Of a DNA stretch of 64,000 bases, positions 4,777-64,000 are shown one piece after another (position 1 is the first letter of the stretch; the number at the start of each line of letters is the position of its first letter). This stretch comes from an uncultured Anaerolineales bacterium (GTDB lineage Bacteria; Chloroflexota; Anaerolineae; B4-G1), in contig CAZNRX010000016.1 in the NCBI GenBank assembly GCA_964575455.1, forward strand, positions 445 through 64,444, written 5' to 3'. Made by a program: the position numbers and the translations under genes. The notes under the pieces are model-generated. The model was not told the DNA's origin. It worked only from the letters and a program-made list of their open reading frames with translations, and did not search any database.

Positions 4777-5000
4777 CTGTCTCCCACCTGAGAGATTCCT
4801 CCCGAGTGATATTTGGGATTGCCCCTTCGGTATCCTTAGCGCGGCCCCAGGTGCTCTTGGAGCTGCTCTCCGGATTTTCCAGAGTGCCGAGGTAAGGGGT
4901 CCGGTGACCTGAGAGTTTCGTCGCCGTAGTCAGCCGGCCACGGCGAGTTGCCCCTTCGGTGTCCGCTTGGAGGCGGCCTCTCCCCCATACCCCAGGGCGG
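4777..5000 (-). promoter_or_regulatory. tandem-aptamer glycine riboswitch
   Basis: Minus-strand RNA contains GGAGAG...CACCGAAGGGGCAA...AAACUCUCAGGUCACCGGAC (aptamer 1) and CUGGA..GGAGAG...UACCGAAGGGGCAA...AAUCUCUCAGGUGGGAGACAGAG (aptamer 2). These match the conserved GGAGAG / CGCCGAAGGAGCAA / CUCUCAGGCAAAAGGACAGAG blocks of the gcvT riboswitch. Confidence 0.7.
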
Positions 5001-44486: not shown

Positions 44487-44840
44487 ATGCCAGACATCAA
44501 GACTGATCTCGACTTTGAGTTCTACAGCGAGGATCTGCCTAATCCGGATCTGGAGGACGACCTGTGGGCGGAGGCGTGGAACCGCGTTCAAGCGCTGGCC
44601 AAAGGCCACGACGATATGATCGGTGCCTCGGCCGCTGTCGAACGGGTCGAGCATCGCGAGACGCCGCACGTCTACAGGGCTCGCATCGTCGGCTACGTCC
44701 GCCCGGATAACGTTGTCACGGTGGAGAAGGCGGATAAGCCTATGGCCGCGCTGCAGCAGGCGCTCGATGCCCTGGAGCGGCAGGTGCGCAAGAAGAGGGG
44801 GAGAAGCGTGGCCCAACTGGGCGGCCCACTTGGGCCGTGA
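44487..44840 (+). CDS. ribosome hibernation factor (HPF/RaiA, S30AE)-like protein
   Basis: The C-terminal half (HVYRARIVGYVRPDNVVTVEKADKPMAALQQALDALERQVRKKRG) resembles the HPF beta-alpha-beta-beta-beta-alpha core. The N-terminus is divergent. Confidence 0.5.
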   Translation: MPDIKTDLDFEFYSEDLPNPDLEDDLWAEAWNRVQALAKGHDDMIGASAAVERVEHRETPHVYRARIVGYVRPDNVVTVEKADKPMAALQQALDALERQVRKKRGRSVAQLGGPLGP

Positions 44841-44849
44841 GCCCTGGGA

Positions 44850-45175
44850 GAAACCCTAGTGCTCTTTCACACAACAGACCTTGGCTTTTCCCTGCTCCCA
44901 GCCCTCGTCCTCGAGGGCGGTCTGGCCCAGGACAAGGCTCGATAGCACGCGTAAGCCGCCCCGAGACGGGGCTCAGAGCGACTGAAAAGTCCAAGTTAGA
45001 CGTGTGAAATTCCACTAGTGCTCTTTCACACAACAGACCTTGGCTTTTCCCTGCTCCCAGCCCTCGTCCTCGAGGGCGGTCTGGCCCAAGACAAGGCTCG
45101 ATAGCACGCGTAAACCGCCCCGAGACGGGGCTCAGAGCAACTGAAAAGTCCAAGTTAGACGTGTGAAATGGCACT
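44850..45175. repeat. tandem duplication (2 copies, 159 bp unit, about 97% identical) of a highly structured element
   Basis: Unit CTAGTGCTCTTTCACACAACAGACC...GCCCTCGTCCTCGAGGGCG...CCCCGAGACGGGG...GTTAGACGTGTGAAAT. It has 8 bp terminal inverted repeats TTTCACAC/GTGTGAAA and two internal perfect hairpins. A third copy begins at 45174 and diverges. Confidence 0.85.
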
Positions 45176-45281
45176 AGCAAGGTGATCGCCACGGTGCGGC
45201 GAATTTCCCACGGGCGCTGTGTGGTGCGTGGCACCTCACGATGGTAAGTAGGTTAGCATGCAGAGAGAGTGGAGGGCTAAG

Positions 45282-56332: not shown

Positions 56333-59300
56333 TCAGTCGATCTGCAAAGCGATCACCTTTCGCGCCAACACGCTGATCGCCTCATTGCGTCTCTGTAGCT
56401 GGCCCTTGATCACCACAAAGGGCGAACGGAGGGCCTTCCGGCTCTCCTCATAGACTTTGGGACGGATGACGACGTTGATGAGCCCTCCCTCATCCTCCAG
56501 CGTCAGGAAGGCTACGCCCTTGGCCGTTGGAGGACGCTGGCGCGAGACGACGATGCCGCCCACCCGTACCTGGCATCCATCCTCCAATTCCGACAGCGCC
56601 TCGCTCGGCGTCGCGTGCACTGCCTTTAGCTTGTCGCTGATCAGAGCTGTGGGATGTTCCCGGGCGCTCATCCCGGTGTGTGCCATCTCGGTCCATAACC
56701 TCCCTCGCGGCGAGAGAAAGGCGAAGCGGGGCCGGCCTTCCGGCGGTGGGATGGCCAGCTCCTGGGTGACCGCCCTTGACCCGGAGCCTGCGGCTGCTTC
56801 CAGGGCCGTCTTCAACTCCCAGATCAGTTGTCGTCGTGGGACGCCCCATTCGTCGAAGGCGCCGGCCCAGATCATGCCCTCTACAGCTCTTCTTCCCAGC
56901 TTCGTGCGCCGGCAGAAGTCGGCCAGGGAGCGGAAGGGGCCGAAGCGCCGCGCCTCCACCACGCTCTGGCCGCCGACCTCCCCCAGCTCTTTGATCACCG
57001 CTAGCCCCAGCCGCAGCGCCTGGCCCTCCACAGTGGCCTGCAGCTCGGAGGCCTCCACATCTGCCGGACGGACCTCCAAGCCGCGGCGACGAGCCTCGGA
57101 GACGACCACGTGCGCTGGATAGAACCCCATGGGCTGATGGCGCAGCAGGGCGGCGAAGAAGGCCAAGGGGTGGTAGCGCCGCAGCCAAGCGGACTGGTAC
57201 GTCAGCACGGCGAAGGCCGCTGCGTGGCTCTTGGGGAACGAGTAGCTGCCGAAGGCCTGGAGCTGCTCGAAGATCCGCTCCGCTGCTCTCGCCTCGACGC
57301 CTCGCTCTGCCGCGCCGTCGAGGAAGCGTCTCCTGAAGCGCGCGATCCTCCGTCCGGCGCGCTTGTGCGAAAGGGCGCGCCGCAGGAGCTCTGCCTCACC
57401 CGGGGTGAACCCGGCCAGATCTCGCGCCACCTTCAAAACCTGCTCCTGGAAGATGATCACGCCCAGCGTCTCCCTGAGCGCGTCCTCCAGGAGGGGGTGT
57501 GGATAGCTGATCGGCTCGCGGCCCTCGCGGCGGCGCAGGTAGGGGCGGACCATCTGGGCCTGAAGCGGCCCGGGACGGATGAGGGAGATTTGGATGACCA
57601 GGTCGTCGAACGAACGCGGCTGAAAGCGCGGGATCAGGTTGGCCTGGGCTCTCGATTCCACCTGGAAGACGCCGATCGTCTTGCCTTGGCAGAGCATGTC
57701 GTAGACCTCGGGGTCATCTTGTGAGAGCGACGTCAGGTCCGGGCGCTGCTCGGTCTGGCCTTCGACGATGGTCACGGCGTCCTCGATGAGAGAGAGCATC
57801 CTCAGCCCCAACAGGTCGATCTTGACCAATCCCGCGCCCTCCAGGCCATCCTTGTCCCATTGGGTGACCACGGGGGTAGAGGACACCCCTAGGCCCTCCA
57901 TGGTCGCCGGCTCCAGCGGCACCAGCTCGCACAGCGGTGGGCCGGAGAGCACCACACCCCCGTTGTGGATCCCCAGATGGCGTGGGATGCCCTCCAGTTG
58001 GGGCACCAGCCGCAGGAGGTGTTGGAACAGCCTGGGTGACTGTGTCGACCCGGGTGACTGTGTCGACCCGGGTGAGTTGGCGCCCTTGCACGCCGCCCCG
58101 CCTGTCAGTTGCTCGGCATCGAACGCCTGCAGCATCCCGCGTGACTCTCTCACGCTTTTCGCGTCTCGGACGTCGAGCGACTTAGCCAGTCGCTCCACCA
58201 GCGCCGGCGGGAACCCGAGCACGCGCGCCACGTCCCGCACCGCCGATCGGGCGCGGAAGGTGACGAAGGTGCAGGCCATAGCTGCGTGCTCCCGGCCGTA
58301 GCACTGGTAGACGTATTGGATCACCTCCTCGCGCCGGTCGGCGGCGATGTCGATGTCGATGTCGGGCGGTGAGCCGCGCTCCTGTGAGAGGAAGCGCTCA
58401 AAGACCAGATCGCACGCCACCGGATCGATAGGGCTGATATCCAGAAGGTAGGCCACTAGCGAGTTGGCCGCGCTTCCCCGGCCCTGGTAGCGAATGCCCG
58501 CCTGTTGGGCGAAGCGCACGATATCCCAGACGACGAGGAAGTAGTTGGACAGCCCCATCTGTTGGATCACCGAGAGCTCCTGCTCCAGCAGCGCGGTCGG
58601 CGGATTGACAGGGTAGCGGCGATGAAGCGCCCGCTGGCACAGTTGCCGCAGTCTGTGGTGAGCGTCGCTGGGTGCCCCCCCTCTTATCCCCCCCAGAGGG
58701 GGGGAAGCGGGCTTTGGGGTTCCCCTCCCAGAGGGGGAGCGGGCCTTGGGGACCTCCCCCAGAGAGGGGGAAGCGGGCTTTGGGGTTCCCCCCCAGAGGG
58801 GGAGCGGGCTTTGGGGTTCCCCCCCAGAGGGGGGGAAGCTAGGGCCTTGGGGACCTCCCCCAGAGTGGGGGAGGCTAGGGCCTCGGGGCCCCTCCCAGAG
58901 GAGAGAGGTTGGGGCCTTGAAGAGTCCCCCCGGAGGGGAGGAGGTTGGGGTCTCGGGGAGTGTCTGCATCCCGGCGGGCAGGTAGTCGCACGCTGGTGCA
59001 CAGCGTTGGGCGATGCGCAGGGCGTTCTCCAGGGCGATAGGCACGTCGCTGAAGAGCCTCGCCATCTCCCCCGGCGAGCGCAGGATATACTCGTCGTTGG
59101 AGCGCAGCAGATCGTCGGCGTCCTCCAGGACGGTCTGATGGTGGATGCAGCGCAGGACGTCGTGAACCTCCCGCTGGTGTGGATGGAGGTAGTGGACGTT
59201 TCCGGTCGCCACCACGTCGAGGCCGGCCCGATCGGCCAGCGTCGTCAGCTGCGCCAGAAGCCGGTTATCGTCCCTCACGTAGTGGCGCTGCAGCTCGATG

Positions 59301-59788
59301 AAGAAGCGATGAGGGCCGAAGACGCGGGCGTAGCCCTGAGCCGCGCTCAACGCTTGCTCACGTTTCTTGGCCATCAACAAGCGCGGTATCTCGCCCCGGC
59401 GACAGCCCGAGAGCGCAATCAAGCCCTCGGCGTGGGCGGCGAGGTCACGCTTGTCAAGCCGAGCTACTCCCTTGTCCTGATGCTGACGCGCCAGCGTGAT
59501 CAGGCGGCACAGGTTGGCGTATCCCTCCGCGGTCTCTATCAGAAGGATGAGGTGGGAACCTTCTTCGTGTGCCGGGTCGCGGAGCGTCATCTCGCTGCCC
59601 AGGATGGGCTTGACCCCTGCCTCCCGCGCAGCCTTCACGAAGCGCACCGCGCCGTAGAGCGCGTCGTGGTCGGTCAGGGCCAACGCAGGGATCCCTAGAT
59701 CGGCCGCTCGGACCGCCAGCGCCTCCGGCGAGGGGACGCCGTCGAGCAAGCTATGGCTAGAGTGGGTGTGAAGCTCGGCGTATTTCAT
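56333..59788 (-). CDS. dnaE2: error-prone DNA polymerase III alpha-like subunit (DnaE2/ImuC) carrying an in-frame Pro/Gly-rich repeat insertion
   Basis: PHP N-terminus (YAELHTHSSHSLLDG), polymerase core and a C-terminal OB fold. Preceded by imuB and a LexA box. Start taken at MKYAELH; the tracked ORF extends to 59860 across direct repeats. Confidence 0.8.
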   Translation of the reverse strand: MKYAELHTHSSHSLLDGVPSPEALAVRAADLGIPALALTDHDALYGAVRFVKAAREAGVKPILGSEMTLRDPAHEEGSHLILLIETAEGYANLCRLITLARQHQDKGVARLDKRDLAAHAEGLIALSGCRRGEIPRLLMAKKREQALSAAQGYARVFGPHRFFIELQRHYVRDDNRLLAQLTTLADRAGLDVVATGNVHYLHPHQREVHDVLRCIHHQTVLEDADDLLRSNDEYILRSPGEMARLFSDVPIALENALRIAQRCAPACDYLPAGMQTLPETPTSSPPGGLFKAPTSLLWEGPRGPSLPHSGGGPQGPSFPPSGGEPQSPLPLWGGTPKPASPSLGEVPKARSPSGRGTPKPASPPLGGIRGGAPSDAHHRLRQLCQRALHRRYPVNPPTALLEQELSVIQQMGLSNYFLVVWDIVRFAQQAGIRYQGRGSAANSLVAYLLDISPIDPVACDLVFERFLSQERGSPPDIDIDIAADRREEVIQYVYQCYGREHAAMACTFVTFRARSAVRDVARVLGFPPALVERLAKSLDVRDAKSVRESRGMLQAFDAEQLTGGAACKGANSPGSTQSPGSTQSPRLFQHLLRLVPQLEGIPRHLGIHNGGVVLSGPPLCELVPLEPATMEGLGVSSTPVVTQWDKDGLEGAGLVKIDLLGLRMLSLIEDAVTIVEGQTEQRPDLTSLSQDDPEVYDMLCQGKTIGVFQVESRAQANLIPRFQPRSFDDLVIQISLIRPGPLQAQMVRPYLRRREGREPISYPHPLLEDALRETLGVIIFQEQVLKVARDLAGFTPGEAELLRRALSHKRAGRRIARFRRRFLDGAAERGVEARAAERIFEQLQAFGSYSFPKSHAAAFAVLTYQSAWLRRYHPLAFFAALLRHQPMGFYPAHVVVSEARRRGLEVRPADVEASELQATVEGQALRLGLAVIKELGEVGGQSVVEARRFGPFRSLADFCRRTKLGRRAVEGMIWAGAFDEWGVPRRQLIWELKTALEAAAGSGSRAVTQELAIPPPEGRPRFAFLSPRGRLWTEMAHTGMSAREHPTALISDKLKAVHATPSEALSELEDGCQVRVGGIVVSRQRPPTAKGVAFLTLEDEGGLINVVIRPKVYEESRKALRSPFVVIKGQLQRRNEAISVLARKVIALQID
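58681..58975. repeat. about 8 tandem copies of a 33-36 bp GC-palindromic unit (CCCCCCCAGAGGGGGGG-AAGCGGGCTTTGGGGTT) inside the dnaE2 coding frame
   Basis: Seen directly in the sequence. It encodes the peptide ..GGLFKAPTSLLWEGPRGPSLPHSGGGPQGPSFPPSGGEPQSPLPLWGGTPKPASPSLGEVPKARSPSGRGTPKPASPPLGG.. without stop codons. Confidence 0.85.
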
Positions 59789-59860
59789 GAACGCGAAAGG
59801 CACGAAAGATGAACACGAAAGGCACGGAATACGAACACGAAGGGCGCGAAAGGCGGGCAC
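59789..59860. repeat. three direct repeats of about 22 bp (ATGAACRCGAAAGGCACGRAAK) in the imuB-dnaE2 junction
   Basis: Seen in the sequence immediately upstream of the proposed dnaE2 start. Confidence 0.7.
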
Positions 59861-62209: not shown

Positions 62210-63022
62210 CTATTCGCGTCTATCGGCCCGCGGAGCGCGCCGCTGCCAGAGCCCGACGCCCCAGCGCACGATGGCCAGCTGGGAGAGGCCGATCCAGATC
62301 AGGAGCAGGGTAGCTCCCCAGGCGACTGTCTGAATCGGGCGGCCCACGTTTTGGCGGGCGGTTCCCACGCGCGTCTGGAGCTGCTCCAGATTGCTGCGGT
62401 GACTGCTGAGCGCCGCGTCGGCGTCGACCACGTTCTGGCGGATGCCCAACATATGGTCTCCCATGAGCGCGATGCCGCTTTGGACGTCGTCGAGGCTGGC
62501 GCTGGTCTCAAGCAGTCCGGCTCCCATAGCGCGCAAGCTCTCGGGCACCGGCGCCAGGCCCGCCCCGGCCTCCGCCACGGCTTGATCGAGCGGGATATTC
62601 GGATCGTAGCCTCCAACGCCGAGCTGCTGAAGGCTGCGGAGCAGCTGATCGATCACCGCAGCTGTCTCCTCCAGCGCATCCAGGGCCAGCAGCGAGGCCT
62701 CAATGCTCTGTGGCAGATCATCTTCGGCCAGTCCAGCTATCTCGTCGACCGTCACCCGGGTGCTGCTCAACGTTTGACTCACGTCGAGCGTTGTGGTGTA
62801 GAGGCCATTGATGGCGATGGCGGCGCCGTCCAGCGTGGTAGACGCTACGTCCAGCGAGCGGTCGACATCCTTCAGTGTGTCTGAGAGCAGGAGCAGGCTA
62901 TCGTCGGCCGCGACTGCGACATCCTCGGCCGCGCGCCAGACGTAGATCACGCCCAGGGCGCTGAGCGCGATCCCCAGGGCGCCAAGTAGGATGAGCAACG
63001 TGCCTAGGATACGTCGAGTCAT
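62210..63022 (-). CDS. membrane-anchored hypothetical protein (N- and C-terminal TM helices, coiled-coil ectodomain)
   Basis: 270 aa with TM segments at both ends and a central Ala/Leu-rich helical region. Confidence 0.55.
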   Translation of the reverse strand: MTRRILGTLLILLGALGIALSALGVIYVWRAAEDVAVAADDSLLLLSDTLKDVDRSLDVASTTLDGAAIAINGLYTTTLDVSQTLSSTRVTVDEIAGLAEDDLPQSIEASLLALDALEETAAVIDQLLRSLQQLGVGGYDPNIPLDQAVAEAGAGLAPVPESLRAMGAGLLETSASLDDVQSGIALMGDHMLGIRQNVVDADAALSSHRSNLEQLQTRVGTARQNVGRPIQTVAWGATLLLIWIGLSQLAIVRWGVGLWQRRAPRADRRE

Positions 63023-63990
63023 GAGGGCACCTCCTCTTGTTCGGTCACGCGCTTGCGTGCTTCCTGGTAGAGCGCGGTCAGGTCGTTCTGGACCCGCTGC
63101 ACGGTCATAGCTCGACGGGCGTCGCCGTCGAACGAGATCTTCCCCGACATGGCCGCCCGAGCGGGGTTGATTCGGCCGGTGAACATCGCATCCATCACAT
63201 CGGCGTCCATCTCCAGCCGGACCTCCGCCGGAGCTGGTGGCTGGCCCAGACCGCCAATGACCGTGCCGTCCTGGAAGCCCAGGTAGACCTCCAGGCTTGG
63301 ATCTTGCAGCACGTAGTGCGTGGTCAACTGGCGTCCCTTGGCAAACTCTTTTAAGGCCGGGTCGTCTGCGGCGAGCTCGACGAAGGCGTCTAAGACGCGC
63401 TTCATCTCTCCCTCGCTCAGTGGCTGGAGTGGGGTTGAGACGTCTTGTTGCCGCTCTTCACGCCCAGTCGAGCTGCGACCGCTTCCCAGACCACGCAGTG
63501 CGGCCAAGACCCGCCTGACAAGCCCCTGACGCGTCGCGTCCCCCGCTCTTGTCCCCACCGGGGTGGGGGAGGCCCCCCCTCTCGTCCCCCCCAGAGGGGG
63601 GGAGGCCCCCGCTCTTGTCCCCACCGGGGTGGGGGAGGCCCCCCCTCTCGTCCCCCCCAGAGGGGGGGAGGTTGGATGCGGTCCCCCGACATCGTGGAGG
63701 GCCTCACGAAGCTCCGTCTCCAACTCGTAGAGCGGAATGGAGCGAGCTGACTCCTTGAGCATCTCCAAGGTGGGGTACCCCTCCTCCTGCTCGGCCGTCC
63801 ACTCCTCTGCGAACTGTCCGCTCCGGATCTCATCCAGGCCATCCCGCATTCTATCGCGCAGTCCAGGGAGCTGGAAGCGCATGCCGCGCGACATGGAGCC
63901 ATACTGGCTGGTGCGGCTGTGAAGCTGGCTCTGTTCCACCATGCCCAACTCGGCAATCTTCCCCAGCGTGTAGGAAAACTCACCGGACAT
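63019..63990 (-). CDS. partial CDS (N-terminus beyond the window): ketol-acid reductoisomerase-like C-terminal domain fused through a Pro/Gly-rich repeat insertion to an SCP2 sterol-carrier domain
   Basis: ..YMSGEFSYTLGKIAELGMVEQSQLHSRTSQYGSMSRGMR..DEIRSGQFAEEW.. resembles the KARI C-terminal knotted domain. The C-terminal 110 aa (..MSGKISFDGDARRAM..) resembles SCP2. Confidence 0.55.
   Translation of the reverse strand: MSGEFSYTLGKIAELGMVEQSQLHSRTSQYGSMSRGMRFQLPGLRDRMRDGLDEIRSGQFAEEWTAEQEEGYPTLEMLKESARSIPLYELETELREALHDVGGPHPTSPPLGGTRGGASPTPVGTRAGASPPLGGTRGGASPTPVGTRAGDATRQGLVRRVLAALRGLGSGRSSTGREERQQDVSTPLQPLSEGEMKRVLDAFVELAADDPALKEFAKGRQLTTHYVLQDPSLEVYLGFQDGTVIGGLGQPPAPAEVRLEMDADVMDAMFTGRINPARAAMSGKISFDGDARRAMTVQRVQNDLTALYQEARKRVTEQEEVPS
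63540..63670. repeat. two tandem 67 bp GC-palindromic units (..CCCCACCGGGGTGGGGG..CCCCCCCAGAGGGGGGG..) in frame within the KARI-SCP2 gene
   Basis: Seen directly. Shares the C7-AGA-G7 core with the dnaE2 insertion. Encodes ..PPLGGTRGGASPTPVGTRAGASPPLGGTRGGASPTPVGTRAG... Confidence 0.85.
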
Positions 63991-64000
63991 GTACAGCTCC

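Follow-up and report, generated by a model that had tools for sequence, protein, structure and literature searches.

In-frame palindromic repeats are known from Rickettsia and from a minority of repetitive extragenic palindromic (REP) sequences, and are seen here in a large, mostly uncultured phylum. The Rickettsia palindromic elements (RPEs) are the classic in-frame case; they are about 100-150 bp long, AT-rich, found in Rickettsia only and encode one conserved peptide per family, and they are regarded as selfish DNA that is tolerated in the form of surface loops (PMC10969869). REPs carry a GTAG or CGTC tetranucleotide tag at one end, are mostly extragenic and rarely form head-to-tail tandem arrays; those that lie inside genes are often dimers or clusters coding for 20-80 residues, their hosts include DnaE2, UvrD/Rep, and RecBCD genes, and it has been argued that loops and linkers can accommodate such inserts (Di Nocera et al., 2013, PMC3733652). 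The subject of this article is a short C- and G-rich palindromic repeat that forms two arrays in a 64,000-nt stretch of DNA (hereafter the window, meaning the whole stretch) from an uncultured Anaerolineales bacterium (contig CAZNRX010000016.1), one in a gene for a ketol-acid reductoisomerase (KARI) fused to an SCP2 domain and the other in dnaE2.

The array in the KARI-SCP2 gene is likely to be a REP- or RPE-like, probably selfish palindromic repeat that is tolerated in a disordered linker and has been expanded locally. Its unit consists of a C7 run, a spacer of 4-5 nt, and the hairpin TC7-AGA-G7A, and is dispersed in many Chloroflexota genomes, often within genes. The element is very short, is free of stop codons in the KARI array, and is found within genes at a frequency little below that of random positions. 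Two odd Pro/Gly-rich stretches in the window are in this way explained without a new protein function.

The tandem array in the KARI-SCP2 gene

The array, its tail, its host gene, and the surrounding linker are located as follows, L063 being a metagenome contig that is syntenic with the window:

63540..63671, no strand assigned: A-B-A-B tandem array of four 33-bp units, equal to two perfect 66-bp copies (Tandem Repeats Finder, repeat search, translation)
63669..63675, no strand assigned: AGGTTGG tail on the + strand, CCAACCT on the gene strand, where it codes for 'PT' (sequence and window/L063 DNA alignments)
63019..64000, minus strand: host gene, a KARI_N/KARI_C/SCP2 fusion whose 5' part lies beyond the window end (Pfam)
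63522..63692, minus strand: low-confidence interdomain linker, aa 103-159 of the partial protein, which holds the whole array (AlphaFold2)

Tandem Repeats Finder reports window positions 63540-63671 twice, once with a period of 66 (2.0 copies, 100% matches) and once with a period of 33 (4.0 copies, 81% matches). The units, given as 67 bp in the initial annotation of this DNA, are therefore 66 bp long, and each is made up of two 33-bp sub-units, A (CCCCCGCTCTTGTCCCCACCGGGGTGGGGGAGG) and B (CCCCCCCTCTCGTCCCCCCCAGAGGGGGGGAGG). The layout of every unit is a C-run, then a 5-nt spacer, and then a hairpin, which is TC7-AGA-G7A in unit B (an 8-bp stem and a 3-nt loop within the 33 nt of the unit) and TC4ACC-GG-GGTG4GA in unit A. 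The perfect 66-bp duplicate must be a very recent event. Unit A, whose CCCCACCGGGGTGGGG was found in 0 of the 146 loci searched, probably derives locally from unit B. The AGGTTGG tail is also found at the end of the dnaE2 array and beside the single unit of either L063 site, and it probably belongs to the element as originally inserted. A search for C7AGAG7 with up to three mismatches gave 13 matches in the window, where 1.14 were expected and none of 100 shuffles reached 13, and all 13 are confined to 58688-58941 or 63586-63668. A profile of the units run with nhmmer over the 64 kb found no copy beyond the KARI and dnaE2 arrays. Interpretation of the locus as a CRISPR-like array was rejected by inspection, as there are no unique spacers, the units abut, and the array lies within an open reading frame (ORF).

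On the minus strand, and in frame, the array encodes SPPLGGTRGGASPTPVGTRAGA twice over, in agreement with the Pro/Gly-rich double peptide expected from the initial annotation, and the array is stop-free in all six frames, a property shared by only 0.4% of random 132-mers from the window. The placement between a KARI-like C-terminal domain and SCP2 is borne out by Pfam, which finds KARI_C upstream of the array (aa 12-100, E 3e-13, about 63700-63966) and SCP2 downstream of it (aa 213-303, E 2e-10, about 63091-63363) in one shared frame. There are 296 matching homologues, of which those listed mostly have 500-540 aa and the KARI_N/KARI_C/SCP2 architecture; the few that are named belong to Chloroflexota or Anaerolineae, and the nearest, P0001, is 87% identical and is carried by L063. 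In alignment A1, which comprises 20 homologues, the interval from KARI_C to SCP2 shows no conservation and differs in length from one protein to another. With this alignment, AlphaFold2 places residues 103-159 in coil with a predicted local distance difference test (pLDDT) score below 50, the repeat falling at about aa 110-153, and gives 10-residue block means of 92-98 across residues 191-320, which cover the SCP2 domain. As modeled, the array-bearing linker is probably disordered.

The fusion itself (63019-64000 on the minus strand, with homologues P0001-P0120) represents a large, apparently Chloroflexota-centered family whose members are labeled in the sources simply as ketol-acid reductoisomerase. 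The family joins a C-terminal domain of the lipid-binding SCP2 type to a branched-chain amino-acid enzyme.

The sister array in dnaE2

The second array and its host occupy these positions:

58667..58950, no strand assigned: sister array of about eight units in dnaE2 (Tandem Repeats Finder, nhmmer, L063 comparison)
56333..59788, minus strand: dnaE2-type gene for an error-prone Pol III alpha subunit, host of the sister array (Pfam; start placed by L063 homology)

The open frame of dnaE2 itself extends to 59860. Pfam places the array between the PHP domain (aa 29-193) and DNA_pol3_alpha (aa 403-685). It is a genuine array and, as first proposed, belongs with the KARI array to one repeat family, both members being in frame. 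Length in multiples of 3, suggested initially as a check on copies inside genes, holds here for the expanded portion as a whole and fails for its parts: the units measure 31-36 bp each, only the 237-bp sum of the expanded portion is divisible by 3, and successive units are translated in differing frames.

Other length changes have accumulated in this gene. A perfect 18-bp repeat of 2.3 copies at 58034-58075 (GGGTGACTGTGTCGACCC) is in frame, codes for GSTQSP twice, and has no counterpart in the L063 orthologue, and a further insert of six residues, GLGVSS, is also specific to the window. Together with the array, these make three separate in-frame length changes in the dnaE2 of this lineage. A 22-bp unit present three times (59787-59852, ATGAACACGAAAGGCACGAAAG, 81% matches) lies between the imuB-like gene and dnaE2, immediately upstream of the dnaE2 start that homology supports; no known operator was recognized in it, and it may be a regulatory site.

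Relatives, empty sites, and the derived state

The window and L063 have in common the gene order KARI-SCP2, a gene for a 264-aa protein, DUF1622, an imuB-like gene, and dnaE2, and their DnaE2 proteins are 94% identical outside indels. The KARI linker of L063 contains a single B-type unit (TCCCCCCCTCCGGGGGGGACGAGAGGGGGGG) vs four in the window. At the DnaE2 site, L063 reads ...PEAPTSH-PLGGRRGGAPGD..., and the window reads ...PETPTSS, 79 extra residues, and then PLGGIRGGAPSD...; at the DNA level, one unit (58667-58702, encoding PLGGIRGGAPS) is common to the two, and the following 237 bp (58703-58939, 79 codons) are missing from L063. The single unit in the dnaE2 of L063 follows CCAACC, a short flank that also precedes the KARI units. 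The peptide signature encoded by the repeat occurs in 0 of the 120 listed KARI-SCP2 homologues and in 0 of the 120 listed DnaE2 fragments. None of the 120 listed DnaE2 homologues has the dnaE2 insert, and most have an uninterrupted site of the LPxFPxPxG...YLxxLC type. Homologues without the insert thus exist for both genes, as the comparison of orthologues suggested in the initial annotation revealed. Taken together, the single units of L063 and the signature-free homologues show that both insertions are derived, that they predate the split between the window lineage and L063, and that they were later amplified in the former. The earlier claim of two independent occurrences accordingly holds for the insertions and fails for most of the present length of the arrays, which is local tandem amplification of the one unit per site seen in L063.

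In a more distant contig, L064 (70% identity), the element lies in the same KARI-SCP2 linker in the opposite orientation (L064:10950-11100), and a further copy, at L064:5600, is in frame within the UvrD_C region of an AddA-type helicase. The reversed copy suggests that a single permissive linker was hit more than once, independently, or else that a quasi-palindrome became inverted. A blastn search of the locus against a plasmid collection gave no match.

With respect to the DnaE2 homologues themselves (P0121-P0240, found with a 280-aa query), every one listed is shorter than 500 aa, even though some lie on megabase contigs, and the 1050-aa protein of L063 is missing. These lengths probably reflect a length limit of the search, the alternative being dnaE2 gene calls split by frameshifts.

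The element family across genomes

The exact 19-mer core of the hairpin, TCCCCCCCAGAGGGGGGGA (TC7AGAG7A), was found in 82 metagenome stretches and in 62 stretches of a collection of species-representative genomes. Of the latter, about 50 belong to Chloroflexota (Anaerolineae and Dehalococcoidia) and a few to other phyla. Both independent metagenome-assembled genomes (MAGs) and finished chromosomes contain orthologous copies. Over 124 unique contexts the flanks are polar: a C-run occupies positions -11 to -5 and a T position -4, followed by about three variable bases, the hairpin, and GG, which gives the consensus C7-T-C/A-A-N before the stem and GG after it. The unit in the family is therefore a C-run, a spacer, a second C-run, an AGA loop, and a G-run, as in unit B of the window. 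It measures 33-41 bp and is about 80% G+C, and outside the seed positions the density of hairpin-like C/G-run sites is about 5 per 100 kb. In several relatives (L004, L011, L016, L022, L036) the units form head-to-head dimers that are bounded by C7...G7 and could fold as one long hairpin, and there are single MAGs with several copies that share extended flanks (L004/L039; L031/L032), some of them intergenic.

The sub-type found in the window, C7TCTNNTC7, occurs otherwise only at both sites of L063 and in an Anaerolineales PFOR gene (L053, also L084), and a metagenome scan for the window's own form, C7TCTNNTC7AGAG7, gave 0 matches. The PFOR copies (L053:5024-5054, L084:7397-7427) have a 31-nt core that equals KARI unit B except for a flipped loop, AGA in place of TCT, which alters one residue (SPPEGGTRGGA vs SPPLGGTRGGA). 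Flipping of the loop within a perfect stem seems to occur. The core string was not found in the literature text that was searched.

Some copies merit separate mention. Orthologues of an AIR-synthase-like gene (L011:6128-6178, L036:363-425, L071, L078, L101, L131) carry a head-to-head dimer at one site in AIRS_C, where the spacer between the hairpins differs between genomes both in length (about 13, 25, and 37 nt) and in sequence. A composite inverted-dimer copy (L004:1648-1710) is located about 210 nt downstream of a transfer-messenger RNA gene (L004:1921-2273, 181 bits), and composite copies like it, in its own and a related MAG, have extended flanks in common, as expected of a larger unit resembling a MITE (a miniature transposable element with inverted repeats). 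Outside the Chloroflexota, copies are present in a Prochloron chromosome (L029:983) and in MAGs of Spirochaetaceae (L042:2983) and Bacteroidia (L043:1086); C-runs lie near the core in all three and immediately upstream of it in L029 and L042. Several of the Chloroflexota hosts have names that we take to be sponge-derived.

Position relative to genes and the conserved object

Matches were grouped into 94 independent sites, 73 of which had enough flank to be judged, and the criterion for lying within a long ORF was a spanning open frame of 250 aa or more that continued for 60 aa or more to either side of the site. The outcome was:

All judgeable sites: 58% within a long ORF
Sites with the flanking run of the family: 62% within a long ORF
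Random positions in the same loci: 65% within a long ORF

Of the 62 genome loci, 26 or more fall in genes confirmed by Pfam, with the element often inside the region aligned to the domain model. The confirmed hosts comprise xanthine dehydrogenase, an AIR-synthase-like protein, MTHFR, CoA-transferase III, GMC oxidoreductase, peptidase M1, LarC, CopC-CopD, HypF, PFOR, DUF885, a DsbH-like protein, a HemN_C/VWA protein, a BTAD-AAA regulator, and AddA, and in-frame hosts outside the Chloroflexota are Prochloron rpoC2, a spirochaete topA, and a Bacteroidia class II aminoacyl-tRNA synthetase. The presence of copies in these last three genes hints at spread between phyla. A predominance of intergenic copies, which would have made the in-frame status of the window arrays coincidental, was not encountered among the relatives, given that the 58-62% in long ORFs compares with 65% at random and that many of the genes are verified by Pfam.

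Among verified hosts the core is translated in five of the six combinations of strand and phase, as SPPLGG, SPPEGG, LPPSGGE, LPPRGGE, and PPLWGG. A word-indexed peptide search of a very large protein set gave seven candidates, none of which scored, and an exhaustive HMMER peptide search of a very large protein set gave three matches, all to unrelated low-complexity repeat proteins. On the evidence of the five frames, the mixed frames within dnaE2, the conserved polarity of the upstream flank, and the missing peptide relatives, the conserved object is the DNA and the peptide is a passenger. The suggestion that the arrays act as flexible-linker cassettes is not supported by a core that is translated five ways in different hosts and forms no conserved peptide module. 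Selection for frame-preserving insertions, the other interpretation put forward initially, is better replaced by survivorship, because the KARI array is stop-free in six frames and every copy with a total length divisible by 3 leaves the gene uninterrupted; in-frame status is what purifying selection leaves behind.

Comparison with REPs, RPEs, and MITEs

The element resembles REPs in being a short, G/C-rich hairpin repeat that occurs as singletons, head-to-head dimers, and clusters, a subset of them in frame in genes, and in being an imperfect palindrome of 20-40 nt with a stem-loop. The likeness extends to the hosts, the dnaE2 of the window and an AddA-type helicase of L064 being among them. 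It differs from REPs in that neither GTAG nor CGTC stands beside the stem, the stems are homopolymeric (C7/G7) and are accompanied by an additional C-run upstream, about 60% of copies lie inside genes where REPs are predominantly extragenic, and the arrays of the window are head-to-tail. As to copy number, the window has two loci in 64 kb, and relatives have several copies per MAG at the density of hairpin-like sites given above. A link to RAYT, the transposase type associated with REPs, was not found by an approximate tblastn probe of the window and 146 loci.

With RPEs the element shares in-frame palindromic insertion into unrelated housekeeping ORFs. Unlike an RPE, it is 33-41 bp long, about 80% G+C, mainly from Chloroflexota, and read in several frames, so that its peptide varies with the frame. 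Some relatives recall REPINs and MITEs, with two inverted units around a spacer recurring at several loci of one MAG, whereas the window arrays are direct repeats without terminal inverted repeats beyond the hairpins and without a definable target-site duplication, and the window units are shorter than the 70 bp at which the MITE size range of 70-300 bp begins.

Origin of the arrays and alternative explanations

The arrival and tolerance of a dispersed palindromic repeat, followed by local expansion, would have involved three steps. One unit of about 38-40 nt (GC7TCTYSTC7RGAG7AGGTKGG) would have entered the KARI-SCP2 linker, and another dnaE2, in the ancestor shared with L063; the derived state and shared ancestry are observed, and from them we infer the act of insertion. 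Local amplification in the window lineage would then have raised the number of units to four in KARI and about eight in dnaE2. The amplification is evident from the comparison with L063, and slipped-strand mispairing or unequal recombination, either of them aided by the hairpins, may have been its mechanism. The copies would finally have persisted as inserts with a length that is a multiple of 3, a stop-free sequence in the KARI array, and a hydrophilic Pro/Gly/Ser/Arg peptide that is predicted, at low confidence, to be coil in a variable, unconserved linker; these properties can be read from the locus, and neutrality is presumed. Candidates for arrival at new sites are a trans-acting transposase and microhomology-driven conversion at Pro-Gly-coding C/G runs.

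A more ambitious proposal, which is possible but doubtful, is that C7-N-TC7AGAG7A represents an undescribed family of mobile palindromes that are compatible with coding, still active and equipped with machinery of its own, present across Chloroflexota and occasionally in co-occurring Cyanobacteria, Spirochaetes, and Bacteroidia, that prefers Pro-Gly-coding C/G runs and seeds disordered loops and linkers in housekeeping enzymes through local amplification. If that were so, the family would be a free-living counterpart of the RPE phenomenon of Rickettsia. In-frame colonization of genes by the element, if confirmed, would in any case offer enzymes a simple route to disordered loops and linkers. 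It would also provide a marker for recent genome dynamics in Chloroflexota populations and a warning for annotation, given that inserts and frameshifts at C7/G7 runs can split or distort gene calls.

Several observations weigh against a mobile palindrome as the source of the arrays. The folding energy of the array is no better than that of dinucleotide shuffles (z = -0.75 as DNA, +0.17 as RNA) and therefore lends no independent support to structure, which is a consequence of composition plus palindromy. No target-site duplication is definable from filled and empty sites, no presence/absence polymorphism was found between near-identical genomes, and the Y1/RAYT tblastn probe gave no match in the window and the 146 loci, the queries being approximate and the sampled DNA small; with no transposase, target-site duplication, or polymorphism found, we infer mobility from dispersal alone. 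Pro/Gly loops, FPxPxG in DnaE2 for example, already make up the host sites, which leaves some probability for a local or convergent origin and could reflect target preference or microhomology-driven conversion. The census covers relatives, as the source genome is in no collection searched (the best protein match is 80-87% identical), was seeded on a perfect 19-mer, and used ORF span as a proxy for genic position with random positions as the control. Some of the 19-mer matches are probably unrelated hairpins, for example those in the AT-rich marine contigs L066 and L085.

Rfam searches yielded two sub-threshold look-alikes, 6C RNA (30 bits against a threshold of 47) and whalefall-1 RNA (18 bits against a threshold of 37), neither of which was accepted, and on the relatives they yielded only sub-threshold hairpin look-alikes.

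The arrays could instead have arisen in place, through slippage and quasi-palindrome formation in native Pro-Gly-coding C/G runs, with the likeness between sites being convergence under GC-rich codon usage. Such a purely local origin is unlikely, although most of both arrays as they now stand is the product of local amplification, the empty DnaE2 site of orthologues already codes for the Pro/Gly loop FPxPxG, and neither a transposase (by the approximate probe) nor a target-site duplication came to light. It would have to produce, in unrelated genes, the same 31-40 nt or so, including TCTYR spacers, the AGA loop, and the AGGTTGG tail, and a polar flank consensus that holds across 124 unique contexts. 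The intergenic multi-copy versions with extended common flanks in single MAGs also speak against it, as does the finding of the core in five of six frames. An assembly or sequencing artefact, whether poly-G/poly-C junk or a chimeric join, is scarcely credible: homopolymer-rich sequence of extreme GC content is error-prone, but the reading frame and both flanking domains are intact, both sites are occupied in the independent assembly L063, and orthologous copies exist in independent MAGs and finished chromosomes.

That the Pro/Gly repeat is a selected linker or spacer cassette, tuning the distance between domains in KARI-SCP2 (and in DnaE2), agrees with an array that is in frame exactly in the interdomain linker, with linker length that varies among orthologues, and with the low-confidence coil predicted there. 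We consider it improbable, however, since the nearest relative works with one unit and the signature is found in 0 of 120 listed homologues, the dnaE2 units are in different frames and other hosts use yet other frames within domain-aligned regions, and neither of the two peptide searches, both over very large protein sets, brought up a genuine relative. An equally small chance is given to a function in the nucleic acid, by which C7/C7/G7 hairpins, alternative hairpins, triplexes (H-DNA-like), or slippage-prone runs would make transcription or translation pause, or would turn genes such as dnaE2 on and off in the manner of a contingency locus. Runs of seven G or C are of the slippage-prone kind, the C7TCT...TCTC7-AGA-G7AGA variants would, from their sequence, allow both Watson-Crick and Hoogsteen-compatible registers, and the changes of frame between dnaE2 units show past +/-1 events. 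Yet the hosts are functionally unrelated housekeeping enzymes, folding does not exceed that of shuffles, no Rfam family is reached, and identical metagenome copies were not seen to differ in length.

Other features of the window

A 159-bp unit is duplicated in tandem with 96% identity at 44856-45177, in an apparent intergenic gap between a minus-strand ORF that ends near 44816 and a plus-strand ORF that starts at 45258, and no Rfam family reaches its threshold there. No tRNA genes were found in the 64 kb. The sole Rfam family above threshold in the window is a glycine riboswitch aptamer on the minus strand at 4887-4995 (RF00504, 52 bits against a threshold of 32).

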